Positions 6,110 through 62,703 of a stretch of 64,000 bases of DNA are shown here, one piece after another. Within the stretch, counting starts at the first letter, position 1. Each line of letters starts with the position of its first letter. Origin of the DNA: an uncultured Candidatus Saccharibacteria bacterium (GTDB lineage Bacteria > Patescibacteriota > Minisyncoccia > Phycocordibacterales > Zambryskibacteraceae); the NCBI GenBank assembly GCA_964446535.1, contig CAYUOR010000002.1:43372-107371 (forward strand), given 5' to 3'. The notes below the pieces were generated by a model, which searched no databases, was not told the DNA's origin, and saw nothing but the letters and a program-made list of their open reading frames with translations. The position numbers and the translations under genes are program-made.

Positions 6110-6184
6110 TGGTGCCCCCAGCAGGAATCGAACCCACATCACCTGTTCCGAAGACAGGCACTTTATCCATTAAGCTATGGGGGC
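6110..6184 (-). tRNA. tRNA-Arg (anticodon TCG)
   Basis: cloverleaf on the minus strand with anticodon stem CCTGT/ACAGG and loop CTTCGGA. The T-loop TTCGATT and a 3' CCA are encoded. The T-stem contains G-U pairs. Confidence 0.6.
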
Positions 6185-6212
6185 TAAAGTAATGTTACAA
6201 GGGATTTTCGAG

Positions 6213-6284
6213 TGCGACTAGGGAGAATCGAACTCCCATCTCGTCCTTGGCAAGGACGCATTCTACCACTAAACCATAGTCGCA
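6213..6284 (-). tRNA. tRNA-Gly (anticodon GCC)
   Basis: D-arm GTTTAGTGGTAGAAT, anticodon loop TTGCCAA, T-loop TTCGATT, acceptor GCGACTA/TAGTCGC. Confidence 0.7.
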
Positions 6285-6354
6285 GGTGAGAAAGATAATA
6301 ACGTATTAGGAGAAAAAAATCGAGATTTTGAAATGACTTTATCGCATGCTAGGA

Positions 6355-6380
6355 TAGACGCTTACGGGCTGTACGAGTAC
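6355..6380 (+). repeat. tRNA acceptor-stem minihelix repeat, copy 1 (CGGGCTG-TACGAGTACAT-CAGCCCGA)
   Basis: the 7-bp stem is identical to the acceptor stems of the downstream tRNA-Pro genes, and the 11-nt loop is near-identical to copy 2. Confidence 0.4.
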
Positions 6381-6391
6381 ATCAGCCCGAT

Positions 6392-6416
6392 CACTCAGAA
6401 TAAAAAGTTATGCCAG
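6392..6416. other. Perfect palindrome AAAAGTTATGC-CA-GCATAACTTTT (possible bidirectional terminator or protein site)
   Basis: 11-bp inverted arms with A-run/T-run flanks, located between the minihelix and tRNA-Pro. Confidence 0.4.
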
Positions 6417-6427
6417 CATAACTTTTG

Positions 6428-6498
6428 TCCTTCGTTACGGGCTGTAGTACAGCGGTAGTATACACGCTTCGGGAGTGTGAGACCCGAGTTCGATTCTC
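6428..6498 (+). tRNA. tRNA-Pro (anticodon CGG)
   Basis: acceptor CGGGCTG/CAGCCCG, anticodon stem CACGC/GTGTG, loop TTCGGGA, T-arm CCGAG-TTCGATT-CTCGG. Confidence 0.75.
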
Positions 6499-6522
6499 GG
6501 CAGCCCGATGCCAAGTTTGGAA

Positions 6523-6593
6523 AAAATCTAGTCGGGCCGTAGTATATCGGTAGTATGCATGCTTTGGGAGCATGAGGGCCGAGTTCGATTCTC
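6523..6593 (+). tRNA. tRNA-Pro (anticodon TGG)
   Basis: acceptor CGGGCCG/CGGCCCG, anticodon stem CATGC/GCATG, loop TTTGGGA. Confidence 0.8.
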
Positions 6594-6605
6594 GGCGGCC
6601 CGAAA

Positions 6606-6631
6606 GAAAAAATGTACGGGCTGTATGAATA
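6606..6631 (+). repeat. tRNA acceptor-stem minihelix repeat, copy 2 (CGGGCTG-TATGAATACAT-CAGCCCGA)
   Basis: same stem as copy 1 and as the tRNA-Pro acceptor stems. Confidence 0.4.
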
Positions 6632-6679
6632 CATCAGCCCGAGCGTTCGGAATGAATATCAAAGCTCGCTTTGCTATTA

Positions 6680-6750
6680 TTCCTCACTACGGGCTGTAGT
6701 ATAACGGTAGTATCTGCCCATGGGGTGGGTAAGGCCCGGGTTCAATTCCC
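6680..6750 (+). tRNA. tRNA-Pro (anticodon GGG)
   Basis: acceptor CGGGCTG/CAGCCCG, anticodon stem TGCCC/GGGTA, loop ATGGGGT, T-arm CCGGG-TTCAATT-CCCGG. Confidence 0.7.
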
Positions 6751-6755
6751 GGCAG

Positions 6756-6826
6756 CCCGAAAGAAGCGGGATTAGTTTAGTGGCAAAACGACAGTTTTCC
6801 AAACTGTAGTTGGGAGTTCGATTCTC
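6756..6826 (+). tRNA. tRNA-Gly (anticodon TCC)
   Basis: acceptor GCGGGAT/ATCCCGC, anticodon stem ACAGT/ACTGT, loop TTTCCAA, T-loop TTCGATT. Confidence 0.8.
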
Positions 6827-6846
6827 CCATCCCGCACTTTTTCCCT

Positions 6847-12115: not shown

Positions 12116-12640
12116 ATGGAACCGAATCAAATGCCACAGACGCCATCGCAAGGGCCTGACAAGAAAACGCTCATTGCCGTTGTCGTTGTTTTAGTAATAC
12201 TTGCCGCAGGATACCTCTTGGCTACGAAGTATGACAAAAGAATGGGAATAAAGGATGGTGACAAGGCGAGCGAAACCATTCCACTAGAGGTTAGTGTTAC
12301 CCACACGGAACGAGTCAACGGCGTCTTACCCCCTCCGCCCGGCTTTCCTTCCGATATCCCGGTTGAAAAAACGGACATTAGAGAGAGCGCCACAACACAA
12401 TATCCGACCCTTGACGCCAAACAGCTAAGTTTAAATTATCAAACCTCAAAGACGGTTGCCCAGAAATTGACGGAATACAGAGATTATATGAAAAAAGCCG
12501 GCTACAGCGTGAGTGAAAGTAGCGCTTCTGCTCCCGTAAAAGCACTCTTTGGCACCAAAGATGATGCCAATCTCACTGTAGTTATCAGCAACGCAGGCAG
12601 TGGAAAAACTTTGGTTCAGGTCGCCTATCTTCTTAAGTAG
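12116..12640 (+). CDS. Membrane-anchored hypothetical protein
   Basis: N-terminal TM helix LIAVVVVLVILAAGYLLA with a proline-rich linker; no recognisable domain. Confidence 0.4.
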   Translation: MEPNQMPQTPSQGPDKKTLIAVVVVLVILAAGYLLATKYDKRMGIKDGDKASETIPLEVSVTHTERVNGVLPPPPGFPSDIPVEKTDIRESATTQYPTLDAKQLSLNYQTSKTVAQKLTEYRDYMKKAGYSVSESSASAPVKALFGTKDDANLTVVISNAGSGKTLVQVAYLLK

Positions 12641-12698: not shown

Positions 12699-14450
12699 AT
12701 GCATATTGATGAGGCGAAACTCGAGGGTTTCATGATCGACTCTGGACTTGTTTCCAGAAAGGATATCGATGCGGCCAAAGTTGAGGCAAAGAAAAAAAAT
12801 ACAAGTATCGGTGAAATTCTTGTAAACCGTGGGGCTCTTACCGAGGATGACCTTCGCCGAATGCAGGCCTATATTCTCGGCATCCCATTTGTGGATTTAA
12901 AAAACCAGAAACTTGATTTCTCGGTTCTCTCGCTCGTTCCGGAACCCATAGCAAGAAACCACAACATTGTTGCGTTCAAGAAAGTAAATGACAGTCTTGA
13001 GGTTGCGATGTTAGACACCGACGATCTTACCGCAATTGACTTTGTTAAGAAAAAGGTTGGCTTAAGAGTTCTGCCCCGCTTGACTGACGCCGAAAGTATG
13101 AAGTGGGCACTGCTTTCATATCAAAAAACTCTTAAGGCCGAGTTCGGAGATATCATCCAGAAAGAAGCAAGCTCTCTTAAAACGGTTAGTGAGGGCGATG
13201 AAGGGGATATAGCCGAAGGGGATCTTAAGAAACTGGCTACCGATATACCGGTTGTTCGTATTGTGGACACCCTTCTCAAACATGCAATTATCCAAGACGC
13301 CTCCGATATACACATAGAGCCAGAGGAGGACAAAGTTCTTGTTCGCTACAGAGTAGACGGTATTTTGCGCGACGCCATGATTCTGCCGAAAAATACTGCT
13401 TCCGGCATAACGGCGCGCATTAAGGTTCTCGCCAACCTTAAACTTGATGAGAAGCGTCTGCCGCAAGACGGGCGATTTAAGATTGATGTAGGCGGAGAGA
13501 AGGTTTCTTTTCGAGTCTCGACTCTGCCGGTCTACTACGGGGAAAAAACTGTGATGCGACTTCTGCGCGAGAGTGTTTCCGGCTTTACTCTTGAGAGTTT
13601 GGGTTTTCACAACAAGGGCCTGGAAGATTTACACCACTCGCTCAAAGCAACGACCGGCATGATCCTTGCCACCGGCCCGACGGGTTCCGGCAAAACCACC
13701 ACCCTCTACACCATGCTTGATATCGTCAATACCCCAGACGTTAATATTTCTACGATAGAAGATCCGGTTGAATATCAGATGACGAGAATTAATCAGACCC
13801 AAGTCCGTCCAGAAATTGGCCTCACTTTTGCCAACGGCCTTAGAACTCTCGTGCGCCAGGACCCAGACATTATTATGGTCGGAGAAATTCGTGACAACGA
13901 GACGGCCGCCCTCGCCATCAACGCCTCTCTAACCGGACACCTCGTTCTCTCAACTCTCCACACGAATTCCGCCGCTGGTGCGATACCGCGCCTTCTTGAT
14001 ATGAAAGTTGAACCATTCCTTTTAGTTTCTACGCTCAACGTGGTCATTGCCCAACGCCTGATTCGTCGTCTTGCCGCGTCAAAGACCAAGTATTTTTTAA
14101 ACAAAGATGAACTTGACTCACTCTCTAAAATTGTCTCTCTTGACCGCATGCTCGGATTTCTAAGGGAAGGTAAGATTATTGATAAAAAGGATGGATTCGA
14201 AAAGGTGCCCTTCTGGAAACCGAATCCCGGCAAAGATTCCGAGGATGGCTACTCAAGCCGTATTGGAATTCATGAAGTCTTACCTGTTACCGCGACTATT
14301 AAAAACCTGATTATGAAAGGGGCGACTGATCAAGAAATCGAAGAGCAGGCCAAGTCCGAAGGTATGATGACTATGGTTGAAGACGGTATTTTTAAGGCAG
14401 CGCAGGGTATTACTACTATAGAAGAAGTTCTAAGGGTCGTTTCAGAATAA
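12699..14450 (+). CDS. pilB: Type IV pilus assembly ATPase PilB (GspE family)
   Basis: T2SSE N-terminal domain; Walker A LATGPTGSGKTTTLY; Asp/His boxes. Confidence 0.9.
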   Translation: MHIDEAKLEGFMIDSGLVSRKDIDAAKVEAKKKNTSIGEILVNRGALTEDDLRRMQAYILGIPFVDLKNQKLDFSVLSLVPEPIARNHNIVAFKKVNDSLEVAMLDTDDLTAIDFVKKKVGLRVLPRLTDAESMKWALLSYQKTLKAEFGDIIQKEASSLKTVSEGDEGDIAEGDLKKLATDIPVVRIVDTLLKHAIIQDASDIHIEPEEDKVLVRYRVDGILRDAMILPKNTASGITARIKVLANLKLDEKRLPQDGRFKIDVGGEKVSFRVSTLPVYYGEKTVMRLLRESVSGFTLESLGFHNKGLEDLHHSLKATTGMILATGPTGSGKTTTLYTMLDIVNTPDVNISTIEDPVEYQMTRINQTQVRPEIGLTFANGLRTLVRQDPDIIMVGEIRDNETAALAINASLTGHLVLSTLHTNSAAGAIPRLLDMKVEPFLLVSTLNVVIAQRLIRRLAASKTKYFLNKDELDSLSKIVSLDRMLGFLREGKIIDKKDGFEKVPFWKPNPGKDSEDGYSSRIGIHEVLPVTATIKNLIMKGATDQEIEEQAKSEGMMTMVEDGIFKAAQGITTIEEVLRVVSE

Positions 14451-14461
14451 AAAATAGTCAC

Positions 14462-15673
14462 ATGGCTCTCTATAAATACAAAGCAAAAGATAAGGAAGGA
14501 AAAATCTACGAGCGTGCGGCTGACGTTAAAAATCGTGCTGAAATCTACAATATTATTCGCGAGGAAGGGGGCACCCTTGTTTCTATAGAGGAGGCAAAAA
14601 GTATTTTTTCCAAAGGGCTTATCTGGAATTTTTTTAGCGGTATAAAAACTCACCAGAAAATAATTTTTGCAAAAAACTTAGGTTTAATGATGGACGCTGG
14701 ATTGCCTGTTACTCGGGCACTTTCTGTTATGGCGAAGCAAGCTAAGGGCAAAGCCATGAAAAAACTTCTCTCTGATCTAGAAGAAGACATAAGTCATGGT
14801 CAAACTCTTTCGGAATCTCTGCACAAGCATCCACGAATTTTTTCACCCCTTTTCGTATCTATGGTTAAGGCGGGCGAAGAATCCGGCAATGTCTCTGGCG
14901 CTCTGGCTATTGTTGCGAATCAAATGGAGAAGACATATCTATTGGCGAAAAAAGTGCGAGGCGCCATGATTTATCCGGCCGTTATCATTGTCGTGATGAT
15001 TGCACTTGCGATACTGCTTCTCATATATATGGTTCCCACTCTTACGGCAACCTTTGAAGGTCTGGGAGTCGAACTTCCGCTACCGACAAGAATCCTCATT
15101 GCCTCAAGTAACTTTATGGTCGATAACACGTTTCTCGTTCTTTCTGTTCTCGCGCTCTTTGTAGGCTTATCTATAATGTTTTTCAGAAGCAAACTCGGCA
15201 GGAGCATTACGGACGTCGTATTCCTTCGCCTACCGGCAATTGGCGAGATGGTTAGAGAGTTTGAATCTGCGAGAAGCGCCCGCACCCTTTCATCCCTTCT
15301 TGGTGCCGGGGTGGAGATTATCGTTGCTCTCGACGTTACCATAGATGTCTTGCAAAACCATCTTTACAAGGAAGCGCTCGGCAGCGCTCGTAGTGCGGTG
15401 GAAAAAGGTGAGCCGATGTCGGAAGTTTTTATCAAGCACGAACACCTTTACCCGCGCTTTGTCGGAGAGATGGTGGCAGTAGGTGAGGAGACGGGCAAAA
15501 TTTCAGAGATGTTGAAAGGAGTTGCCGATTACTACGAAGAAGAGGTAGACCAAAAGACCAAAAATCTTTCAACAATTATTGAGCCAGTACTCATGATTAT
15601 TATCGGTATCGGGGTTGGAGTTTTCGCTATCTCGATGCTCGCCCCAACGTATTCTTTGGTCGATTATATTTAA
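14462..15673 (+). CDS. pilC: Type IV pilus platform protein PilC (GspF family)
   Basis: two T2SSF repeats and three TM segments; adjacent to pilB. Confidence 0.85.
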   Translation: MALYKYKAKDKEGKIYERAADVKNRAEIYNIIREEGGTLVSIEEAKSIFSKGLIWNFFSGIKTHQKIIFAKNLGLMMDAGLPVTRALSVMAKQAKGKAMKKLLSDLEEDISHGQTLSESLHKHPRIFSPLFVSMVKAGEESGNVSGALAIVANQMEKTYLLAKKVRGAMIYPAVIIVVMIALAILLLIYMVPTLTATFEGLGVELPLPTRILIASSNFMVDNTFLVLSVLALFVGLSIMFFRSKLGRSITDVVFLRLPAIGEMVREFESARSARTLSSLLGAGVEIIVALDVTIDVLQNHLYKEALGSARSAVEKGEPMSEVFIKHEHLYPRFVGEMVAVGEETGKISEMLKGVADYYEEEVDQKTKNLSTIIEPVLMIIIGIGVGVFAISMLAPTYSLVDYI

Positions 15674-15678
15674 TTTTA

Positions 15679-16149
15679 ATGAATTCAAAATCTATTAGTC
15701 GAGGTTTTACATTGTTAGAACTTCTGCTCGTTATAGTTATTGTTACTGTAGTGGCTGCTCTCGGTGTGTTTTCCTTTACAAAACTTAATTCTTCTCAGGC
15801 ATTGGAAAAAAGTGCCGACCTGGTAGTTTCTACTCTTAATGAGGCCAGAGCACTTACTCTCTCTTCAAAAGGAGATACGCAGTACGGCGTTTACATTGAG
15901 CCTTCGCAGATAGTTTTATTTTCTGGTAATTCATACTCCTCCTCAGATCCGGCCAACAGAGTAAACACCCTACATTCACTAGTGGGTATTCAAAATATTA
16001 ATCTTTCTGGCGGTGGTACAAGCGTAATTTTTGAACGTCTAACGGGTGGCACTAATCAAGCGGGCACGCTGGAGATTTTCTTAAGATCTTCTCCGGGGAC
16101 GTATCGCACCATTACCATTACGGGAACAGGGATAGTAGAATTAGACTAA
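15679..16149 (+). CDS. Prepilin-type N-terminal cleavage/methylation domain pilin (GspH/FimT-like)
   Basis: N-terminal RGFTLLELLLVIVIV class III signal. Confidence 0.75.
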   Translation: MNSKSISRGFTLLELLLVIVIVTVVAALGVFSFTKLNSSQALEKSADLVVSTLNEARALTLSSKGDTQYGVYIEPSQIVLFSGNSYSSSDPANRVNTLHSLVGIQNINLSGGGTSVIFERLTGGTNQAGTLEIFLRSSPGTYRTITITGTGIVELD

Positions 16150-16156
16150 TAGCTCT

Positions 16157-16648
16157 ATGAAAAACTTTCCGAACCATTCTACGCGCGGATTGACTCTGGT
16201 GGAGGTGCTTGTTGCCGCTTCTATAATTTTGGTTTTTCTTCTGGCGCTTTTCGGCGCCCACAATCTCTATTTGAAGGCCGCATTTTCTAGCGGCGAGGTT
16301 ATTAAGGCAACCACCTTAGCAGAAGAGAGCTTAGAGGTAGTTAGATTTTTAAGAAACGGCTCTTGGGATAGAAACATTGCACCCCTTTCTCTCGACACCG
16401 ATTATTTTTTAACTTTTAACTCTGGCATTTGGGCAACAAGTACCACTAATGCTTTTTTAGATAATCTCTTTGAAAGAAAAATTAGATTATCGGCCGTTTA
16501 TCGTGACGTCAATGGAGATATTGTTTCCTCAGGAGGAACCCTGGATCCTGATACCAGACTAGTAGTCTCAACTGTTTCATGGCAGCTAAGAAATACGACG
16601 ACCACTCGATCCGTATCCACGTACTTAACAGACCTGTATGAAAACTAA
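16157..16648 (+). CDS. Minor pilin-like protein (atypical prepilin N-terminus)
   Basis: RGLTLVEVLVAASIILVFLLALF N-terminal helix; lies in the pilin gene cluster. Confidence 0.6.
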   Translation: MKNFPNHSTRGLTLVEVLVAASIILVFLLALFGAHNLYLKAAFSSGEVIKATTLAEESLEVVRFLRNGSWDRNIAPLSLDTDYFLTFNSGIWATSTTNAFLDNLFERKIRLSAVYRDVNGDIVSSGGTLDPDTRLVVSTVSWQLRNTTTTRSVSTYLTDLYEN

Positions 16649-17150
16649 AATATTGAAAAACAAACGCGGGTTCACTTTAATCGAGATGCTGATTTACATA
16701 TTCATTTTAATATTAATGCTTGGGGTTATTATGAACATAACCATTTCGGTAATTAATTCCGGAAAAATTGTAAAAGCTCTACGAAATATTGAAAACTCAA
16801 CTCTGACGAGTTTCGAGCGTATTTCAAGGGAGTTACGCCAAGCCGAAAGTGTGAATCTCTCTTCGAGCGTCTTGAGTGTTCATCCTGGCCATCTTGTACT
16901 TGTGGGCACTGACGACTTTGGTGCACCACGCACCGTCGAATTTCGTCTATCTGGCAATGTTTTAATGCTTAGAGAAAATGGTATTGATGTGGGCGCCTTA
17001 ACCGAGCCTAACACAAGGGTAACTGAACTTATTTTTCGACGCTTCGTTAACTCCAATTCGGAGGGAATCAGAACAGAAATCACGCTTGAGAGTGGTACCA
17101 GTACTAGTTATCGTTCAAGCAAATTTTATTACTCCGCTATCATAAGATAA
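16638..17150 (+). CDS. Minor pilin (prepilin-type N-terminal domain)
   Basis: KRGFTLIEMLIYIFILILMLGVI. Confidence 0.7.
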   Translation: MKTKILKNKRGFTLIEMLIYIFILILMLGVIMNITISVINSGKIVKALRNIENSTLTSFERISRELRQAESVNLSSSVLSVHPGHLVLVGTDDFGAPRTVEFRLSGNVLMLRENGIDVGALTEPNTRVTELIFRRFVNSNSEGIRTEITLESGTSTSYRSSKFYYSAIIR

Positions 17151-21063: not shown

Positions 21064-21966
21064 TTAATAACTTCTGGAGTTAATTAATCTGCCGAACCTG
21101 TCATATAGTTCTATTGTTTCGTATTCATTTGCCCACATTTCCCAACCCCTACCCAGAAAAACCCTCCATGTCTTACCGTAGAAATCTTCATCATTCACGT
21201 GTGAAGCAATACAGCCCGCGTAGCTGAAACGCTCTTTGATAAAGGCGACACAAGCGCCTGAAAGCGGCTTACCATTTACACAATTACGACAAACGGAACC
21301 ATCGGCCTCCCTGGTGTTAAACTCCGGTGTCTGACAGCTCGGCAGACGCTCTATGAATTTCCGACATTCTACATCAAGATATTCGAGCCCCCGCTCTTGA
21401 GACGGGCGCGGGCAGCTCCTACTTAGGGCGGGGGTAAATTTGTATTCATCCGTATTTTCAAGGTAGCCACTACAAATATTTTCTTTAAAACTTACAATTT
21501 TGTAAGGAGCTTCGACAGTAATAGCACCCGTTGTAATTATTGCTCTCTCGCCACGCTCAAGAATAATATCAAGCATTAAATTGTTGTTGCTTGGTGAGAG
21601 GAACGGGGTGCCGCGTCCGATGTAGGCAATATCGGGGGCAAAGTAGCGCAACTGGCCACCGATGTTGTATGGACGCTTGTCCTTGGCGTTTTTCAGATAC
21701 CAGCCCGTAATATTTATCGGATCTCGTCCGCGGTTATTTATTATTATGTATTCTTCAAATGACTGATAAGATCTTGCCGCGTTACCAGTACTTATAGACA
21801 CCTCAACCTCGCTTGACACCTCTCTCGAGACAACATTCTCTTTTCTTTCTGATACAGAGGTCTTTTCTCGCGATTGCGTGCTCGTTCTGCCTAGAGAAGT
21901 AATAATTAAAGCAATAATTACCACGACTAGTATCACCACGCCCTCGGTCGTGCTGCTTTTTTTCAT
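21064..21966 (-). CDS. Membrane-anchored protein with lamin-tail-domain-like segment and Cys-rich C-terminal region (hypothetical)
   Basis: N-terminal TM helix; IINNRGRDPINITGWYL resembles the LTD motif; 10 Cys in the C-terminal half. Confidence 0.5.
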   Translation of the reverse strand: MKKSSTTEGVVILVVVIIALIITSLGRTSTQSREKTSVSERKENVVSREVSSEVEVSISTGNAARSYQSFEEYIIINNRGRDPINITGWYLKNAKDKRPYNIGGQLRYFAPDIAYIGRGTPFLSPSNNNLMLDIILERGERAIITTGAITVEAPYKIVSFKENICSGYLENTDEYKFTPALSRSCPRPSQERGLEYLDVECRKFIERLPSCQTPEFNTREADGSVCRNCVNGKPLSGACVAFIKERFSYAGCIASHVNDEDFYGKTWRVFLGRGWEMWANEYETIELYDRFGRLINSRSY

Positions 21967-22034: not shown

Positions 22035-23681
22035 ATGAAATACTTCCCAGAATTATTTGAGGCCATGCTTCAGGAGCGGGGTCTTTCGGATGGTGAACGC
22101 GACAACTTTCTTAATCCAGATTATGAGAAGCTCCACGACCCGCTTCTTTTACCCGATATGGCACGAGCCAGAGACAGGCTAATCGGGGCCCTGAAAAATA
22201 ATGAACATATCACGATTTTTTCCGACTATGATGCGGACGGTATTCCAGGCGCTGTGGTACTCTCAGATTTTTTTCGTAGGATTAATTATGACAACATTTC
22301 TTTTTACATCCCGCACAGGCACAACGAAGGATTCGGACTCAGTCTTGATGTCATTGAAGAATGTCTAAGGCGTGGGACAAGTCTTCTTATCACCATAGAT
22401 TGCGGCGTTGTTGATTTCGACGAGGTACTTCACGCTCAAAATAACGGCATAGACGTCATCATCACCGATCACCACAAAACGAAAGACAAACTGCCAAAGG
22501 CCTACGCTGTTATAAACCCAAATAGGGAAGACTCTAAGTACGAATTCAAAGAGCTTTGCGGTTCTGCCGTTGTTTTCAAACTCGTGCAGGCGGTGATGAA
22601 TACCAACACCCTTGGAGTAAAGCCCGGACTAGAGAAGTGGTCTCTGGATATGGTGGCTATCGCCACTCTTTCTGATATGGTTCCGCTTCTTGGAGAAAAC
22701 AGGATTCTGTCTCGCTTTGGACTTGAAGTCTTGCGCAAATCGCCGAGACCGGGACTCGCCGCCCTTTTTAAGAGAGCGCGTCTTGATCAGAAAAATCTTA
22801 CCGAAGACGATGTGGTCTTTATGATTACACCAAGAATAAACGCCGCCTCACGTATGGGTGTTTCTGAAGATGCCCTGAAGCTTTTACGCACGAACGATCC
22901 GATAGAGGCCGACAGGCTTTCACTCCACCTGGAGAAAATAAATAACCAGCGCAAAGGTGTTGTAGCAAGTATTATCAAAGATGCCAAATCGCATCTCGAC
23001 AAAAGAGAAAAGATTTCAGAAGTAATAGTTATAGGCAATCCCGAGTGGCGCCCCGGTCTTTTGGGTCTTGTTGCAAATTCTTTGGTAGAAGAATACGCCA
23101 GACCCGCCTTCGTCTGGGGTCGGGATGGGAACGGCTTACTCAAGGGATCTTGTCGTGCACCGGAAAATTTTGATCTAGTCAAACTTATGAATTTTACCGC
23201 GGACTATTTTACCGAATTTGGCGGACACGCCGGTGCTGGCGGATTTTCCACCAGCTTTGAAAACCTTTTGGTTCTTGAAGAAAAACTTTCTCTGGAGGCT
23301 GCAGAGGCGAAAGTTTCTGTTGAGAACGTGACCTCGGCGATAAGTTTACCGATAAGCCTCTCCGATATAGGAGAAAATTTGTGGCAGACCGTTTCTCTCT
23401 TTGCTCCATTCGGTGTTGGGAATAGGAAGCCGATTTTTAAGATTCCTAATGCCGAAATTAAATCAATAAAAACATTCGGCAAAGAGGGGAACCACTTGGA
23501 GGTACTCTTTAATGGCGGAAGTCGGGAAGTTAAGGCGATTTCTTTCTTTTCCAGTCCTGAAAATTTCGGAACCCCGCTTCTTCCCGGGATAAGAGTTAAT
23601 GTTTTGGCCAATCTGGAAAAGTCTTATTTTGGCAGTCGTCCAGAACTTAGGCTAAGAATTCTCGATATTATAAAAATATGA
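22035..23681 (+). CDS. recJ: Single-stranded-DNA-specific exonuclease RecJ
   Basis: DHH motifs FSDYDADG and ITDHH; DHHA1 region. Confidence 0.85.
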   Translation: MKYFPELFEAMLQERGLSDGERDNFLNPDYEKLHDPLLLPDMARARDRLIGALKNNEHITIFSDYDADGIPGAVVLSDFFRRINYDNISFYIPHRHNEGFGLSLDVIEECLRRGTSLLITIDCGVVDFDEVLHAQNNGIDVIITDHHKTKDKLPKAYAVINPNREDSKYEFKELCGSAVVFKLVQAVMNTNTLGVKPGLEKWSLDMVAIATLSDMVPLLGENRILSRFGLEVLRKSPRPGLAALFKRARLDQKNLTEDDVVFMITPRINAASRMGVSEDALKLLRTNDPIEADRLSLHLEKINNQRKGVVASIIKDAKSHLDKREKISEVIVIGNPEWRPGLLGLVANSLVEEYARPAFVWGRDGNGLLKGSCRAPENFDLVKLMNFTADYFTEFGGHAGAGGFSTSFENLLVLEEKLSLEAAEAKVSVENVTSAISLPISLSDIGENLWQTVSLFAPFGVGNRKPIFKIPNAEIKSIKTFGKEGNHLEVLFNGGSREVKAISFFSSPENFGTPLLPGIRVNVLANLEKSYFGSRPELRLRILDIIKI

Positions 23682-24151
23682 CGGAAATTTATACCGACGG
23701 CGCTTCTCGCGGCAATCCAGGACCTGGGGGCTGGGGGGTAGTCGTTCTCTCTGAGAGAGAAGTAAGAGAGCTTGGCGGTGGAGAGCCCCGCACGACCAAC
23801 AATAAAATGGAGTTAACCGCCGCAATTCGGGCTTTAGAAGCCTGTTCCGATAAAAAGCTGACCATTTACACCGATTCAGAGTATGTTGCTAAAGGTATGA
23901 CCGAGTGGATATTCAATTGGCAGAAAAAAGGTTGGAAAACAGCAAACAAAAAACCAGTTTTAAACCAAGATTTATGGCAAAAGCTCTCTTCTCTTGCCGA
24001 AGACAGAGAAATTTCTTGGAAATATGTGCCGGCGCATAGCGGTATTCGCCTTAACGAACGAGCCGACGAAATTGCCACCGGCTTTGCCGACGCAGTTTCG
24101 GGTGCCGAGAAGCCAAAGCTTTTCCATGGACCGAAAAACGCGTACCGATAG
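23678..24151 (+). CDS. rnhA: Ribonuclease HI
   Basis: TDGASRGNPGPGGWG...ELTAAIRALE...TDSEYV catalytic DEDD residues. Confidence 0.9.
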   Translation: MTEIYTDGASRGNPGPGGWGVVVLSEREVRELGGGEPRTTNNKMELTAAIRALEACSDKKLTIYTDSEYVAKGMTEWIFNWQKKGWKTANKKPVLNQDLWQKLSSLAEDREISWKYVPAHSGIRLNERADEIATGFADAVSGAEKPKLFHGPKNAYR

Positions 24152-25610
24152 TATCTTTGCAATAATTTTTGGATTTATTATTGGAGTTTTTGCTGCTTCA
24201 TTTTATCAATCCAACATTTTCCTTGTTCTTTTTATCATCTTTTTGGGCTGTGCTGTTTTGTTAACCGATAAACTAAGAAGCAGGCTTATTAGTAGAGAAA
24301 GCTTACTTATATCTCTTGTACTAATTGCTTCTGGGTTAGGCATTTTCCGCTATGAGATCAAAGATTATTACGTTCCACTAAAGCCGTCTGAGACAGGCAT
24401 TGTCATTAGTGAGCCGGAACAAAGGGAAAATACCACGCGTTTTGTTTTCAAGGCCGACAATGGAGAAAAAGTTTTGGTTAACACAGATTTATACAGCCAT
24501 GTTCTATATGGTGACAGGGTGAAGGTCTCTGGAAAACCAGTCATTCCAGGATTAATAGAGAACGATGATGGGCTAAGGGTGTTTGATTACGGAAAATATC
24601 TTGCCAAAGATGATATTTACCTCGTTTTAAATTTCGTCGAGGTCGAAATCGTCTCGCGGCAACATGGAAATCCGCTCAAAAACTTTTTATTTAAAATTAA
24701 AAATAGTTTCACAGCTAAAATAAAAGAAATACTTGCCGAACCATATGCCAGCTTACTTTCCGGGCTTATTGTTTCTGGTAAGGGCGCCATGCCGCGCGAT
24801 ATTTTGGAAGAATTTCGCCGTGCAGGAATTATTCATATTGTCGTACTTTCTGGCTACAACATAACTATTATCGCCGAATTCATCAGAAGATTTTTCCAGA
24901 GTGTTTTTCTCGCGACCAGAGCCAGGTTCGCCTTACCACTCAGTATCGCCGCCTCAGTTTTCGCCATTTTAGGCTTTGTGCTTATGACTGGTGCCGAAGC
25001 AACGGTAGTACGTGCCTCTATCATGGTGCTGGTAGTTATAGTTGCGAAAATGTTGGGCAAAATCCACTCCGCACCCAGAGCACTTCTTATCGCCGGTTTC
25101 CTAATGGTTATTCATAATCCAAAGATTCTTGTTTTCGATCCCTCTTTTCAACTATCTTTTCTTGCCACCCTTGGTCTTGTTTACGCAGCACCGCTCTTTG
25201 AGAGAATTTTTAAACAGGTACCAGAAAAATTTGGATTTAGAATTATCCTCTCCACAACACTAGCGACACAACTCTTTGTTCTACCTTTTATTATTTACTC
25301 AATAGGTGATTTTTCTCTGGTATCTCTTTTGTCCAACCTTTTAGTTCTTGCGGTGATTCCTCTTACAATGCTTCTAGGTTTCCTTGCCACTCTACTTGCC
25401 TACTTAGGCACTATTTTTGCACTACCTCTTGCCTATCTAGCACACATTCTCCTTGCCTGGATTCTTTTCGTGGCATCAACTTTAGGCAACCTATCGCTTG
25501 CGTCAATATCGGTCCCCCCAATCTCCCCCGTGGCTTTGGCTTTGTTTTATCTGATACTCGCTCTTATTTTCTGGCGGCTAAAAAATTATTCTCAACATTC
25601 TCCCAATTAA
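24126..25610 (+). CDS. comEC: ComEC/Rec2 DNA-uptake channel, N-terminal part (DUF4131 + Competence domain) lacking the metallo-beta-lactamase domain
   Basis: polytopic membrane protein with the Competence-domain motif LSGLIVSGKGAMPRDILEEFRRAGIIHIVVLSGYNI; the start at the internal ATG at 24126 overlaps the rnhA end. Confidence 0.7.
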   Translation: MDRKTRTDSIFAIIFGFIIGVFAASFYQSNIFLVLFIIFLGCAVLLTDKLRSRLISRESLLISLVLIASGLGIFRYEIKDYYVPLKPSETGIVISEPEQRENTTRFVFKADNGEKVLVNTDLYSHVLYGDRVKVSGKPVIPGLIENDDGLRVFDYGKYLAKDDIYLVLNFVEVEIVSRQHGNPLKNFLFKIKNSFTAKIKEILAEPYASLLSGLIVSGKGAMPRDILEEFRRAGIIHIVVLSGYNITIIAEFIRRFFQSVFLATRARFALPLSIAASVFAILGFVLMTGAEATVVRASIMVLVVIVAKMLGKIHSAPRALLIAGFLMVIHNPKILVFDPSFQLSFLATLGLVYAAPLFERIFKQVPEKFGFRIILSTTLATQLFVLPFIIYSIGDFSLVSLLSNLLVLAVIPLTMLLGFLATLLAYLGTIFALPLAYLAHILLAWILFVASTLGNLSLASISVPPISPVALALFYLILALIFWRLKNYSQHSPN

Positions 25611-26160
25611 GATTCGCGAAAAATGCTTCAACATATTTTTTCTTCTCCGACGGTGTGTAGTCTATAAAATATGCGTGTTCCCACATATCAAGAACAAGAA
25701 CAGGGGAGAGGCCAACGAGCTGCCCAAGATGGTGCTCATCTACCCAAGCGTTAATTAACCTCTTTGTTTCTTTGTCGTAATAGAGAATTGCCCAACCGAT
25801 ACCGCGCGTAAGAGCAATTGCTTTAAATCTGTTGAGCCACATATTAAAATCGCCCCACTCACTCTCAATCGCCTTTTTAAGTTCACTTTTTTCATCGAGT
25901 GTTGTTGTCCCACCTTCAAAATGCGCAAAATAGTATTCATGGTTTCTCATTCCATCAAATTCAAAACCAAAGCGGCGCTGGAGCTCTCCCAAGGCATAGG
26001 CATTTGCCTCGCTCTCTTTTGCGTATTCCTCAATTTTTGCCAAGATGGTATTGGTGTTTTTGACGTAACCCGAGTAGAGTTTCAGGTGTTCTTCAATAGC
26101 TTTTTCGCTGAGGCCGTTTAATTTTGGAATGCTGAATTTTTTTTCTTCGAATAGTTTCAT
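25564..26160 (-). CDS. sodA: Fe/Mn superoxide dismutase
   Basis: H-x3-H N-terminus and C-terminal DMWEHAYF signature. Confidence 0.9.
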   Translation of the reverse strand: MKLFEEKKFSIPKLNGLSEKAIEEHLKLYSGYVKNTNTILAKIEEYAKESEANAYALGELQRRFGFEFDGMRNHEYYFAHFEGGTTTLDEKSELKKAIESEWGDFNMWLNRFKAIALTRGIGWAILYYDKETKRLINAWVDEHHLGQLVGLSPVLVLDMWEHAYFIDYTPSEKKKYVEAFFANLNWENVENNFLAARK

Positions 26161-26183
26161 ATTAGAGACATTATACTATAAGC

Positions 26184-27041
26184 ATGGATATTGTTAGAAA
26201 ATACTGGTCAGAACTTATCGTAGCAGGGCTAATTCTCGCGAATATCCTCGTCTTTCTTTCCCTTCATGAAAGGAGTCCCAATCAAATTCTCTCCGTATAT
26301 TTTTTGGATGTTGGACAGGGGGATGCGATTTTTATTGAATCACCATCGCGCCAGAGAATTTTAATTGACGGCGGTCGAAACAGGAAAGTTTTAACCGAGC
26401 TTGGCAAAATTTTGCCGTTTGCTGATAGAAGAATTGATTTTGTCATAGCGACGCATCCGGACGGTGACCACATTGGAGGGTTGCCGGAGGTTGTAAGCCG
26501 CTATAAAGTTGGCACCTATTTGGAGCCCGGGGTTTTATCGGAAAGCTCTGTAAATACAGAATTGCACGATCGTCTCGAAATAAAAAATATTCCAATAATT
26601 TTAGCGCGAAGAGGTATGGTGATTGTTCTTGGTGATGACGTGCGACTAGAAATTCTTTTCCCCGCGGTCGACGTTTCAAATTGGGAAAGTAACAGGGCCT
26701 CTATCGTGTCTAGACTTGTATATGGTGACCACGAATTTCTGTTGACAGGAGACTCCCCCTCTCAGATAGAGCACGTCTTAACCATCCTTGATAAGGAAAA
26801 AATTGATGTAGAAGTTTTAAAGGTGGGGCACCACGGTTCGCGCACCTCCACTTCGCTCGAGTTTGTCCAGGCAACAACCCCCGAATATGCGGTAATATCC
26901 GCCGGACGCGACAATACTTACGGCCATCCCCATCAAGAAGTTTTGGTCAATTTAGAAAAAGTCCAGGCGAAAATTTTAAGCACCACCAACCTTGGCAGAA
27001 TAAAGTTTGAAACGGACGGAAAAGTACTCAGGGTTAAATAA
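26184..27041 (+). CDS. Membrane-anchored metallo-beta-lactamase-fold protein corresponding to the ComEC C-terminal domain
   Basis: N-terminal TM helix, then FLDVGQGDAIFIE...ATHPDGDHIGG...VGHHGSRTS typical of the ComEC MBL domain. Confidence 0.7.
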   Translation: MDIVRKYWSELIVAGLILANILVFLSLHERSPNQILSVYFLDVGQGDAIFIESPSRQRILIDGGRNRKVLTELGKILPFADRRIDFVIATHPDGDHIGGLPEVVSRYKVGTYLEPGVLSESSVNTELHDRLEIKNIPIILARRGMVIVLGDDVRLEILFPAVDVSNWESNRASIVSRLVYGDHEFLLTGDSPSQIEHVLTILDKEKIDVEVLKVGHHGSRTSTSLEFVQATTPEYAVISAGRDNTYGHPHQEVLVNLEKVQAKILSTTNLGRIKFETDGKVLRVK

Positions 27042-27276
27042 CCCCCGCTTTTTTGAGCACCGAATGAGCACCGCGTTTGTTTATGGTCTTTATAGCGCGA
27101 GTGGAGAGGACGAGGGTGATAGTTTTCTTGAGTTCGGGCACGTAAATGCGCTTTTTCTGGAAATTCGGGTACTTTCTCGTAAAGCCTGTCGGATTAAATT
27201 GGGTAGCACGAGTCCTGTTGGAGTAGCCCCCACCGATTTTCGAACCCTTTTTGCTGACTGGACAAACTTTCGCCAT
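27034..27276 (-). CDS. rpmB: 50S ribosomal protein L28
   Basis: MAKVCPVSKKG...NRTRATQ...R.FTRKYPNFQKKRIYVPE matches the L28 family. Confidence 0.85.
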   Translation of the reverse strand: MAKVCPVSKKGSKIGGGYSNRTRATQFNPTGFTRKYPNFQKKRIYVPELKKTITLVLSTRAIKTINKRGAHSVLKKAGVI

Positions 27277-50433: not shown

Positions 50434-50852
50434 TGGTGGAGGTGGCGGGAATGAGCCCGCGTCCAAGGAAATGTCTCCGACGAATCTAGCACGCCTAGAC
50501 CGATTTTTCCGCCTTACGGCGAATCTCGATTCTCAAACTATAAATCGGACAAAACATTTGAGATTCAAAGCTCTTTAGTTTGGCGCCGAGAGGAGCACTC
50601 TCTGCGTTACAATCCGACAGATAAGCACCTGAGATCTCGTATCGGATGGCGAGATAACAGGCGTTCGCTTAGGCGAGCTTACGCTCGAGCGTAGGCGAAA
50701 GCAAAGTCGTTTGCCGTAAAGTACGGCGAAACAATAGACTTTGCCCGTGCGACGATATTGTCAGCACTTAAATTTTCCAAGGGTTTAAGGAGTTCTTGGA
50801 GCTCCGCGTGCCACGGCGGGGAACTGGTTTCCATGTCGAAACTGGCACCCCC
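50434..50852 (-). ncRNA. ssrA: tmRNA (SsrA)
   Basis: 5' end GGGGGUGCCAGUUUCGACAUGG matches the tmRNA consensus GGGGCUGAUUCUGGAUUCGAC. The 3' end GGACGCGGGCUCAUUCCCGCCACCUCCACCA matches the tRNA-like T-arm/acceptor GGACGGGGGUUCAAAUCCCCCCAGCUCCACCA. There is an internal tag ORF GCA AAC GAC UUU GCU UUC GCC UAC GCU CGA GCG UAA. smpB lies immediately upstream. Confidence 0.85.
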
Positions 50853-54876: not shown

Positions 54877-54957
54877 AAAGACCTCCTTTTTGAGCTGAAA
54901 AAGTCTCCTGCAACTATACTATTTTAATCCCACAAAGTCAAGAGATATGAAAACTAG

Positions 54958-55031
54958 TCCGCCCGCCACGATTCGAACGTGGGACCCCCGAGGTATAAGC
55001 TCGATGCTCTAACCAGCTGAGCTACGGGCGG
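54958..55031 (-). tRNA. tRNA-Ile with anticodon TAT (UAU), C1-G72 acceptor pair
   Basis: D-arm GCTCAGCTGGTTAGAGC (Ile/Ala/Met type), anticodon stem TCGAG/CTCGG, loop CTTATAC, T-arm CCACG-TTCGAAT-CGTGG, acceptor CCGCCCG/CGGGCGG. Confidence 0.65.
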
Positions 55032-60999: not shown

Positions 61000-62703
61000 A
61001 TGAAGAAAACATCAAACGAGAAGGCACTACTCTCAATCAGCGAAGTTTCAAGCATTTTTGGTATTCACCAAGACACGCTTCGTAATTGGGAGAAAAAAGG
61101 ACTTATTACTCCACTCCGTGTTGGTCCACGAAAAGATCGAAAGTACAAGCCGGAAGACATTGAGCGTATTGCGAATGATAAAAGTATTTTCAAGGGGCTT
61201 GATGAACCTCTCGATGATGGAAAAATGAATCTCACCCAACTCAAGCAATTCCTTTGGAGAAGTGCCGATATTTTGCGTGGAAAGATAGACAGTTCTGATT
61301 ACAAAAAATATATATTTGGACTCCTTTTCTACAAACGCATCAGTGATGTGTGGGACGAAGAATATAAAAAAGTTCTTGAGGAATATCATGACGAAGAAAT
61401 TGCTCGCGCAGATCACAATCACCGTTTCCAAGTTCCGAAAGATTGCCGATGGGAAGTAATACAAAAACAAGCAGAGGGTATCGGGCAGAAACTCAATGAA
61501 ATTTTTGATAAACTCACAAACGCAAACAGTCCCAAGCTCGACAAGATTTTTGATGATCTAGATTTTGCCAACAAGGATAAATTTCCAAATACTACTCTAC
61601 AAAATTTAATAAACCATTTTTCAAAACATAATTTTGGAGACAACTACATCAGCTCTGATCTTCTTGGGGATGCATACGAATATCTCATTGAGCAATTTGC
61701 GGCGGATGCGGGTAAAAAAGGCGGAGAATTTTACACTCCGCGTGAGGTTGAGCGGGTAATAATAAACATTTTAAAACCTCACGAGAAAGACCATATCTAC
61801 GATATGGCAGTTGGCTCTGGCGGTTTCCTACTCGAGGCGTATCACTATCTGCGAGAACAAGCTGGAGAAAAGAAAGCTCGCTCACTCTACCTTTACGGGC
61901 AAGAAATAAACATTGGTACATACGCAATTGCAAAAATTAACATGTTTCTCCACGGGCTTGATAGTGCAGACATTCAGCGCGGAGATACTCTTGCCGATCC
62001 AAAATTTTTGAATCCTGACGGATCGCTAAAAACCTATGATATCTGTGTTGCAAATCCGCCCTACTCCATTAGTGAATGGGAAGATCAGATTTTTGCCGCG
62101 AATAAACACGGAATTCTTGATGGTTATGAAATGCCTCCGGCAAAAAAAGCCGATTACGCCTTTGTGCTCCACATGGTGAAGTCCATGAATAAAAACGGTC
62201 GTGCGGGAATTGTGCTTCCTCACGGGGTACTTTTCCGAGGTGGCGCTGAAGGACGAATCCGTGAGCAACTGATAAAAAATGATCTCATAGAGACCGTCAT
62301 CGCTCTCCCCGCAAAGCTTTTCTATGGCACAGGTATTCCGGCGGCGATCGTGATATTTAACAAGAACAAACCAGAAGCTCACAAGAATAAAATTCTAATT
62401 ATAGACGCGGAAAAAGATTTTGAAGAAGGTAAAAACCAGAATCGCCTTCGCAAAAAAGATATTGAAAAAATTGTTTCGGCTTTTGAGAGTTACCGCGATG
62501 TTGAGAAATATGCTCGCATCGTGGGTATCAAAGAGTTGGAAGAAAATGAGTTCAATCTCAATGTCCGTCGCTATGTAGAAAATGGTGATGAGGAGGAAGT
62601 TGTAGATGTGAAAACAGTTTGGAGTGAATTGAAAGAAATTGAGAAGGAGCGCGAAGTGATTGATAAGAAGGCCGTCAATTATTTAAAAGAATTAAAATAT
62701 TAA
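61000..62703 (+). CDS. hsdM: Type I restriction-modification N6-adenine DNA methyltransferase subunit HsdM with N-terminal MerR/excisionase-type HTH domain
   Basis: HTH LLSISEVSSIFGIHQDTLRNWEKKGLITP; HsdM_N LKQFLWRSADILRG; the AdoMet motif follows within 61800-61830 (frame uncertain); catalytic NPPYS. Confidence 0.85.
   Translation: MKKTSNEKALLSISEVSSIFGIHQDTLRNWEKKGLITPLRVGPRKDRKYKPEDIERIANDKSIFKGLDEPLDDGKMNLTQLKQFLWRSADILRGKIDSSDYKKYIFGLLFYKRISDVWDEEYKKVLEEYHDEEIARADHNHRFQVPKDCRWEVIQKQAEGIGQKLNEIFDKLTNANSPKLDKIFDDLDFANKDKFPNTTLQNLINHFSKHNFGDNYISSDLLGDAYEYLIEQFAADAGKKGGEFYTPREVERVIINILKPHEKDHIYDMAVGSGGFLLEAYHYLREQAGEKKARSLYLYGQEINIGTYAIAKINMFLHGLDSADIQRGDTLADPKFLNPDGSLKTYDICVANPPYSISEWEDQIFAANKHGILDGYEMPPAKKADYAFVLHMVKSMNKNGRAGIVLPHGVLFRGGAEGRIREQLIKNDLIETVIALPAKLFYGTGIPAAIVIFNKNKPEAHKNKILIIDAEKDFEEGKNQNRLRKKDIEKIVSAFESYRDVEKYARIVGIKELEENEFNLNVRRYVENGDEEEVVDVKTVWSELKEIEKEREVIDKKAVNYLKELKY

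Follow-up and report, generated by a model that had tools for sequence, protein, structure and literature searches.

The locus described here lies in a 64,000-nucleotide (nt) stretch of DNA from an uncultured Candidatus Saccharibacteria bacterium (GTDB lineage Zambryskibacteraceae; contig CAYUOR010000002.1, positions 43,372–107,371), and it probably encodes a naturally split, two-subunit ComEC. The whole stretch is called the window, and coordinates are counted from its first letter. Natural transformation universally relies on ComEC as its DNA-import channel; in the single-chain protein, a metallo-beta-lactamase (MBL) nuclease degrades the DNA strand that is not transported. Here, the channel and the nuclease are encoded by two separate genes, and a gene for superoxide dismutase, sodA, lies between them on the opposite strand. 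The split is real and conserved; it is not a categorically new system, and it is relevant to specialists in competence and in the Candidate Phyla Radiation (CPR).

In the proposed arrangement, the channel subunit and a nuclease subunit carrying the equivalent of transmembrane helix 11 (TM11) would meet in the membrane. The nuclease would dock at the mouth of the channel and degrade the non-imported strand as the other strand passes through, and a type IV pilus would deliver DNA to the channel. The split is old and common to the sampled Patescibacteria, with the two genes originally forming a translationally coupled pair with overlapping stop and start codons. The sodA gene was inserted antisense between them later, in one subclade of Paceibacteria, which includes the source genome, and has been inherited with the pair since. 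We infer reassembly in the membrane, nuclease activity and the role in uptake with the type IV pilus. The features that make up the locus are as follows.

24126–25610, + strand: gene for the ComEC channel subunit (N-terminal half, 494 residues), assigned by Pfam DUF4131 and Competence, TIGR00361, alignment to 30bt_A and the public gene call
24216–24647, + strand: DUF4131 region (TM helices and OB fold), channel-subunit residues 31–174, Pfam PF13567, 48.6 bits
24768–25580, + strand: Competence (channel) domain, channel-subunit residues 215–485, Pfam PF03772, 149.2 bits, profile positions 2–267 of 270
25564–26160, − strand: sodA, Fe/Mn superoxide dismutase (198 residues, Pfam), a secondary insertion, antisense to the two ComEC genes and located between them
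25564–25610, both strands: convergent dual-coding overlap of 47 nt, where the channel gene and sodA run into each other at their 3′ ends, from the coordinates
26161–26183, between genes: divergent intergenic region of 23 nt between sodA and the MBL gene, containing ATTATACTATA, from sequence and promoter match
26184–27041, + strand: gene for the ComEC nuclease subunit (C-terminal half, 285 residues), assigned by TIGR00361, alignment to 30bt_A and 9ic4, and Lactamase_B
26205–26273, + strand: predicted TM anchor of the nuclease subunit (residues ~8–30), the TM11 equivalent, from the AlphaFold2 (AF2) helix, alignment to 30bt_A 513–530 and the topology in PMC13539106

The channel subunit

The open reading frame (ORF) of the channel subunit runs for 494 residues from its ATG to the stop codon at 25608–25610. 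The longest ORF in this frame begins at a TTG at 23994; the public record calls the start at 24126 and matches the 494-residue protein exactly. Both ComEC domains score well over their Pfam cut-offs (PF03772, 149.2 bits against 23; PF13567, 48.6 bits against 31.6) and nothing follows the Competence domain. Three hydrophobic helices precede the OB region in the sequence, and the protein terminates in a cytoplasmic segment past TM10. In addition, the Y169/Y172-equivalent aromatic residues of the channel mouth (DYGKY) are retained, as seen in the alignment to 30bt_A.

The nuclease subunit

The second ORF, of 285 residues, matches Lactamase_B with 62.5 bits, contains the motifs HPDGDH and VGHHGS and begins with a hydrophobic helix. 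It opens with a short basic segment (MDIVRKYW) and continues with approximately 20 hydrophobic residues; this pattern would fit an N-in/C-out orientation, with an extracytoplasmic MBL domain. In the AF2 model, a helix spanning residues 8–30 is the only segment with a predicted local distance difference test (pLDDT) score above 70; the remainder is unreliable and too poor for a fold search. Residues 12–280 align to residues 513–789 of 30bt_A (E = 1.4e-34), and an alignment is also obtained with 9ic4, the isolated ComEC beta-lactamase-like domain. Across 12 diverse MBL homologues the motifs HPDxDH, TGD, GHHGS and HPH are invariant.

An antibiotic-hydrolysing or otherwise generic MBL was considered and rejected. 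The protein scores 92 bits against the B3-like family blaAHM, for which the cut-off is 590, and 19.8 bits against GloB, for which it is 200.8; its best match is ComEC.

Homologues of the nuclease subunit were sought with HMMER among 1.84 billion representatives of clusters formed at 50% identity, which gave 6,458 matches at E ≤ 1e-30. About 140 of the 150 best representatives are standalone proteins of roughly 200–350 residues. Five of these 150 have the length of ComEC (788–818 residues) and match at their C-terminal end; P0219, the only one of the five that was checked, carries DUF4131, Competence and Lactamase_B. The best 120 homologues, with 62–75% identity, are all standalone (274–299 residues). 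They come from Zambryskibacteria, Parcubacteria, Minisyncoccia and similar metagenome-assembled genomes (MAGs); the name "ComEC/Rec2 family competence protein" is attached to several of them. Since the closest homologues are standalone, the split is not special to the source genome.

Complementarity and the break point

The two ORFs cover successive parts of the ComEC_Rec2 profile TIGR00361, which has 663 positions: the channel ORF matches 83–409 and the MBL ORF 412–661. Their scores of 66.2 and 143.5 bits are each below the equivalog cut-off of 190.05, and their sum is 209.7. The same division is seen against 30bt_A, a solved ComEC of 801 residues, where the channel ORF aligns from 144 to 498, reaching its own last residue, and the MBL ORF aligns to 513–789. 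On these two alignments the ORFs are halves that complement each other without overlap, leaving no more than about 3 residues unaccounted for. The ComEC modules do not reside on one polypeptide in the window, nor do they in any of the 63 Patescibacteria-type loci listed in the survey below.

The structure determined by cryo-EM for full-length ComEC explains what is divided. Of its 11 TM helices, three precede the OB fold; TM10 and TM11 are separated by a short cytoplasmic helix, CH1, and TM11 leads on to the periplasmic beta-lactamase-like domain (PMC13539106). The nuclease domain is mobile on a flexible linker and is held by a small conserved contact with a loop of the OB fold; one protomer's map shows no TM11 (PMC13539106). 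As placed by alignment, the break is in the cytoplasmic loop between the TM10/CH1 region and TM11, the loosest junction of the solved structure. A break before TM11 means that the small protein would consist of TM11 plus the nuclease.

Outside Patescibacteria, ComEC is split at the same pre-TM11 loop in two Dehalococcoidia loci, L058 and L060, which are nested among fused relatives. They may be recent fissions that arose independently at a permissive site, or else frameshift errors, and they suggest that the pre-TM11 site is structurally permissive. The split ORFs lie at L058:4400–6828 and L060:68–2462. L060 has a Shine-Dalgarno (SD)-like AAGGAAG 5′ of the second start, and it groups with L087 at 99% bootstrap.

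Two ways of joining the halves after transcription were considered and rejected. A split intein or trans-splicing is not indicated, as Pfam finds no intein or Hint domain in either ORF and the ends align to contiguous ComEC sequence. Programmed frameshifting that would fuse the halves is conceivable in some relatives with adjacent genes (the gene overlap in L012 and L016 contains an A7 run); it is impossible here because sodA intervenes.

An earlier note on this DNA had described a first ORF with only DUF4131 and Competence and a second with a ComEC-type MBL domain and its own N-terminal TM helix. Both descriptions hold (the first by coordinates and Pfam, the second by Pfam, TIGR00361 and 30bt_A), and the alignment to full-length ComEC that the note had proposed as a check bears out complementary, non-overlapping halves. 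It was likewise correct in placing an antisense Fe/Mn sodA between them with a 47-nt overlap with the first, as judged by coordinates, Sod_Fe_C and the four metal ligands, and a type IV pilus (PilB, PilC and three pilins) in the same window. Its two reservations can be set aside: identical public gene calls and recurrence in independent assemblies show that a frameshift does not explain the split, and the scores for blaAHM and GloB, far below their cut-offs, speak against a generic MBL hydrolase, the best match being ComEC.

Related loci and the order of events

The arrangement was followed in a survey of at least 80 loci, taking one genome per GTDB species, in which loci were classified by phmmer with the three window proteins as queries. 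The 63 Patescibacteria-type loci listed are distributed as follows.

Fused ComEC: 0 of 63
Antisense sodA between the halves: 21 of 63
Divergent sodA–MBL pair with the upstream part cut off or without a channel gene: 5 of 63
Halves abutting or at most ~230 nt apart, without sodA: 18 of 63
Other DNA of 0.3–3 kb between the halves: 9 of 63
No channel gene in the locus: 10 of 63 (6–7 of these with at least 5 kb upstream)

The channel gene is found upstream in the same locus in 48 of the 63, and in about 35 the two genes abut or have only sodA between them. Where the genes are adjacent and sodA is missing, the junctions are ATGA, overlaps of 17–37 nt or spacers of 0–4 nt, which are typical of translationally coupled subunit genes. 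At these junctions, each MBL ORF encodes a basic N-terminal stretch and then a TM helix. Among the Chloroflexota loci listed, a fused ComEC of 790–970 residues is present in 10 of 16. The order recJ–rnhA–channel gene–(sodA antisense)–MBL recurs in independent assemblies, and the recJ–rnhA–comEC block is kept in L001–L006.

A neighbour-joining (NJ) tree built on the concatenated halves (55 loci, 709 columns, 100 bootstraps) separates Patescibacteria from Chloroflexota at 100%. All sodA-bearing loci form one subclade, also at 100%, and the other Patescibacteria lineages in the tree (labelled Moranbacteria, Falkowbacteria, Yanofskybacteria and others) are all without sodA. The occurrence of the split without sodA elsewhere, together with the single derived sodA subclade, indicates that the split is older than sodA and that sodA is not its cause. 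One locus, L001 (Zambryskibacteria MHVR01000010), lacks sodA and is nested in the sodA clade at 81–100%; its 53-nt spacer still bears the ATTATACTATA box of its sodA-bearing relatives. This nesting and the leftover box fit a secondary loss of sodA.

Many of the loci L009–L085 come from third-party (TPA) MAGs labelled "uncultured Candidatus Saccharibacteria bacterium", and two are labelled "Gammaproteobacteria". The ComECs with TPA labels cluster with sequences of Zambryski-, Nomura- and Moranbacteria type, that is, Paceibacteria type. These taxon labels appear to be placeholders and unfit for claims about distribution.

Standalone ComEC-type MBL genes also form a separate clade in Anaerolineae (L081:2544–6864; L069 and L071). 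The MBL gene in L081 lies 1.1 kb 3′ of a 798-residue ORF of ComEC length, at the C-terminus of which phmmer detected no MBL.

The sodA gene between the halves

The product of sodA matches Sod_Fe_C above the cut-off (88.9 bits) and Sod_Fe_N just below it (23 bits against 27), and it scores far under every cut-off of the NCBIfam superoxide dismutase equivalogs. At least 90% of 27 orthologues keep its metal ligands H25, H75 (in GMRNHE), D163 and H167 (in DMWEH). In the closest relatives, L004, L006, L008 and L009, the channel gene and sodA overlap by 44–50 nt. More distant sodA-bearing loci have longer spacers and additional genes, so there is no strict constraint on the layout. Distances between sodA sequences are correlated with those between MBL genes (r = 0.67, Mantel p = 0.001), which fits co-inheritance since a single insertion.

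Expression of the two subunits

The presence of sodA means that the MBL gene needs its own start signals, because sodA blocks both translational coupling to the channel gene and any recoding or read-through that would fuse the two. Candidate signals are found in the 23 nt between sodA and the MBL gene, where two −10-like boxes overlap inside ATTATACTATA (26170–26180). The first is TATACT on the + strand (26172–26177), at −12 and 6 nt 5′ of the MBL ATG. The second is TATAAT on the − strand (26175–26170), at −15 and 9 nt 5′ of the sodA ATG, with a promoter match of 10/12. The element stands at the same spacing in L001, L004, L006, L008 and L009. A −10 box only 6 nt from the ATG would imply a leaderless mRNA, and the MBL gene would be transcribed alone, from a predicted promoter that shares DNA with that of sodA.

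This layout recurs elsewhere in the window. For 19 of 65 window genes a TATAAT-like hexamer begins 12–15 nt 5′ of the ATG, and such hexamers are found at nearly no other upstream position; SD-like motifs precede 6 of the 66 long window ORFs. Examples of the boxes are those at 12116, 12699, 18918, 22035, 23678, 27311, 46812, 48384 and 51380. From these motifs, leaderless mRNAs look like the default for the first genes of transcription units in the source genome.

The channel gene has no −10 box of its own and overlaps rnhA, and for these reasons it is probably co-transcribed with rnhA and possibly with recJ. As the channel gene and sodA overlap at their 3′ ends, the channel transcript runs into sodA in the antisense direction. 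A terminator scan gave 6 terminator-like hits against 4.6 expected, which is not above chance. The scan produced no credible terminator between the channel gene and sodA, and its only plausibly placed hit is a hairpin at 27030–27045.

Regulatory interference arising from the overlap of the channel and sodA transcripts is speculation. As the −10 box of sodA overlaps that of the nuclease gene and its 3′ end overlaps the channel gene, sodA could do more than ride along: RNA polymerase occupancy and convergent transcription could make superoxide defence and a complete uptake machine mutually exclusive, which we regard as quite improbable. A tie through manganese is a further possibility under the same interference reading, with a Mn2+-dependent ComEC nuclease and a dismutase of the Fe/Mn family. 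Under this reading, a free nuclease subunit could also allow cells to alternate strand-selective import with bulk digestion of DNA.

Weighing the explanations

The simplest history, in which the insertion of sodA broke a formerly fused comEC, was the first of two offered by the earlier note and has the layout in its favour: sodA sits exactly at the junction with little spare DNA, overlapping the channel gene by 47 nt on one side and leaving 23 nt on the other. However, at least 18 Patescibacteria-type loci outside the sodA subclade are split at this point with no sodA, their genes abutting or overlapping; the sodA-bearing loci are a single derived subclade at 100% bootstrap, and none of the 63 loci listed has a fused ComEC. 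Fission by sodA is therefore very improbable, and the second history in the note, an ancestral two-gene arrangement, is supported at least for the sampled Patescibacteria. A sequencing or assembly frameshift, or a decaying pseudogene, can be virtually dismissed. Split genes in MAGs are often artefacts and nothing specific points to a frameshift here, whereas the halves are separated by a complete antisense gene, the arrangement is seen in dozens of independent assemblies, the catalytic and channel residues are conserved and both ORFs are full length with proper starts.

The main rival to a two-subunit ComEC accepts the common origin of the two proteins and holds that they are now separate, with a channel-only ComEC of the kind seen in many bacteria and a TM-anchored MBL that acts as a surface nuclease, digesting environmental DNA to scavenge nucleotides. 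It draws support from Southlakia epibionticum, a Saccharibacterium and the only CPR bacterium with genetics, where, according to PMC10633639, transformation is comEC-dependent and ComEC is a 482-residue channel-only protein; a ComEC-type MBL gene is not listed in the genome tables of that paper that were examined. As S. epibionticum transforms, a channel half can, by analogy, evidently work without the MBL nuclease. The isolated ComEC C-terminal domain degrades single-stranded, double-stranded and plasmid DNA by itself (PMC8579336), in one relative of the nuclease subunit, P0125, the fusion partners are a second MBL and a lamin-tail domain in place of a channel, and CPR bacteria are thought, in the passage of PMC6744442 concerned, to scavenge nucleotides. 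Linkage of the channel and MBL genes is also not obligatory, since the MBL gene is unlinked in several loci (6–7 with at least 5 kb upstream have no channel gene within 6 kb) and 9 have the 0.3–3 kb insert. Against a free surface nuclease stand the channel gene upstream in 48 of the 63 loci listed, abutting or with only sodA between in about 35, the common stop/start overlaps, which are typical of subunits made in a fixed ratio, and the retention of both the TM11 equivalent and the OB-loop aromatics at the channel mouth. We judge this rival unlikely and favour the two-subunit ComEC. The latter also agrees with the finding that the isolated C-terminal domain is an active Mn2+-dependent nuclease, whose metal site is important for transformation of Bacillus subtilis (PMC8579336).

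The polarity of the change could also be reversed, with the two-gene state primitive and the single-chain ComEC of Chloroflexota, Firmicutes and others arising by fusion. Pimentel and Zhang reconstructed a Competence-only ancestor with multiple gains of Lactamase_B (PMC6299819), overlapping stop/start pairs fuse easily and Patescibacteria are a deep lineage. On the other side, the MBL gene carries TM11, which is counted with the competence domain in fused proteins, and the apparently recent, independent splits inside the fused Dehalococcoidia (L058, L060) indicate that fission happens. We consider reversed polarity possible, if doubtful.

Further points temper the two-subunit reading. The data fit fission in the CPR and fusion in other bacteria alike, which leaves the functional reading unchanged. 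The association of the subunits is something that we infer and not a direct observation, and the AF2 model of the lone nuclease subunit, made from a 12-sequence alignment, has a mean pLDDT of 49, which is low confidence. The survey is a sample and not a census, many of its NCBI taxon labels are unreliable, and the NJ tree uses two proteins only and is weak at deep internal nodes, those of the sodA clade included (bootstrap 0–60%). The case for separate transcription of the MBL gene, in turn, is built on motifs.

Neighbouring genes and other features of the window

The genes that flank the ComEC pair are as follows.

22035–23681, + strand: recJ (DHH, DHHA1 and RecJ_OB by Pfam), head of the conserved recJ–rnhA–comEC block, with a −10-like TAAAAT 7 nt 5′ of its ATG
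23678–24151, + strand: rnhA (RNase H, Pfam, 157 bits), sharing 4 nt with recJ and 26 nt with the ComEC channel gene
27030–27045, both strands: possible bidirectional terminator from the terminator scan, a GC-rich hairpin that has T-runs on both strands and lies between the MBL gene and rpmB
27034–27276, − strand: rpmB (ribosomal protein L28, Pfam), convergent with the MBL gene and overlapping it by 8 nt

Downstream of the MBL gene, rpmB on the − strand is followed in the window by genes for an M50 protease, rpsL, rpsG and fusA (Pfam). The first two, rpmB and then the M50 protease, are conserved downstream neighbours of the MBL gene in related loci. The type IV pilus cluster spans 12699–17150 and encodes PilB (12699–14450), PilC (14462–15673) and three pilins (15679–17150). 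No RNA family at or close to the comEC locus came up when the whole window was scanned with Rfam.

In S. epibionticum, the entries for SEML1_0132–0134 and SEML1_0777 in the available genome tables place a 211-residue MBL-fold gene (PF13483) immediately before rpmB (−) and a site-2 (M50) protease. This MBL–rpmB–M50 order is the same as in the window; PF13483 is a different MBL subfamily, and ComEC is elsewhere in that genome. The PF13483 gene could be a displaced or replaced nuclease gene, or the order could be a coincidence.

Divergent from recJ and 5′ of it, at 21064–21966 on the − strand, is a gene whose 300-residue product is anchored by an N-terminal TM segment and has a weak lamin-tail domain (LTD); this position is kept in L001–L006. 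The MBL–MBL–LTD fusion P0125 (721 residues) hints at a link of the LTD protein to the nuclease or to DNA uptake.

Farther away, Rfam identifies a full-length transfer-messenger RNA (tmRNA) at 50434–50852 on the − strand (96 bits), where the ARAGORN scan of the window gave none. A tRNA-Ile with a UAU anticodon lies at 54957–55031 (−), an unusual bacterial route to reading AUA; in most bacteria this codon is read by a lysidine-modified CAU tRNA. A tight cluster at 6110–6837 contains three tRNA-Pro, two tRNA-Gly and one tRNA-Arg. A type I restriction-modification methylase (HsdM_N and N6_Mtase) with an N-terminal MerR-type helix-turn-helix domain is encoded at 61000–62703 (+).

Comparison with known systems

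Part of this picture was known already. The ComEC–MBL fusion is nearly absent in CPR bacteria according to Meheust et al. 2019 (PMC6744442), in the passage that deals with it, and the present survey agrees. That passage is silent on a separate, adjacent, TM-anchored MBL gene and on the sodA insertion, and in the open-access literature we found no description of a split or separately encoded ComEC nuclease gene, of a nested sodA or of its promoter layout. Nor did that literature state that the nuclease is kept as a separate, usually adjacent, TM11-anchored gene, with one conserved split site. The 'missing' ComEC nuclease is thus encoded next door in a large part of Patescibacteria, and at least some nuclease-less ComECs have the domain in trans. 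This bears on how the DNA-uptake capacity of uncultured, ultra-small bacteria is judged. It also matters for annotation, where the NCBI pipeline labels both genes "ComEC/Rec2 family competence protein". The locus is, in addition, a natural experiment on whether the nuclease must be tethered covalently, where a break is tolerated (before TM11) and how the parts are expressed. The sodA gene provides a clean example of a gene lodged between subunit genes in a compact genome, with one subunit forced onto its own promoter.

The closest architectural match to the channel subunit is found in the ComECs with only DUF4131 and Competence (the 'DC-profile'), such as the 482-residue protein of S. epibionticum, which have the same architecture and length. 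The window locus differs from these proteins, as they were scored, in that its nuclease domain is encoded in a neighbouring gene. Pimentel and Zhang scored only Competence-containing proteins (PMC6299819) and, for that reason, the window locus would be scored as 'DC' with Lactamase_B lost. Domain-profile surveys undercount the ComEC nuclease because the domain sits on a separate, neighbouring protein. Almost half of ComECs are without the C-terminal nuclease domain, and strand removal in these has been called an open question (Silale et al., PMC8579336).

A separate, membrane-located nuclease beside a ComEC channel is also known from Streptococcus pneumoniae, where EndA degrades the non-transforming strand. 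The fold of EndA is unrelated, whereas the window nuclease is ComEC's own domain with its native TM helix.

The nearest relative of the pair as a whole is the single-chain ComEC/Rec2 (B. subtilis; Neomoorella carbonis, PDB 30bt; TIGR00361), which has the same three modules in the same order. The two share the metal-binding motifs of the MBL domain and the aromatic residues of the channel mouth, and the locus here stands in a genome with a type IV pilus. Unlike the single-chain protein, the window pair consists of two polypeptides, neither of which reaches the TIGR00361 cut-off alone, with an antisense gene between their genes and a promoter-like element belonging to the nuclease gene itself.

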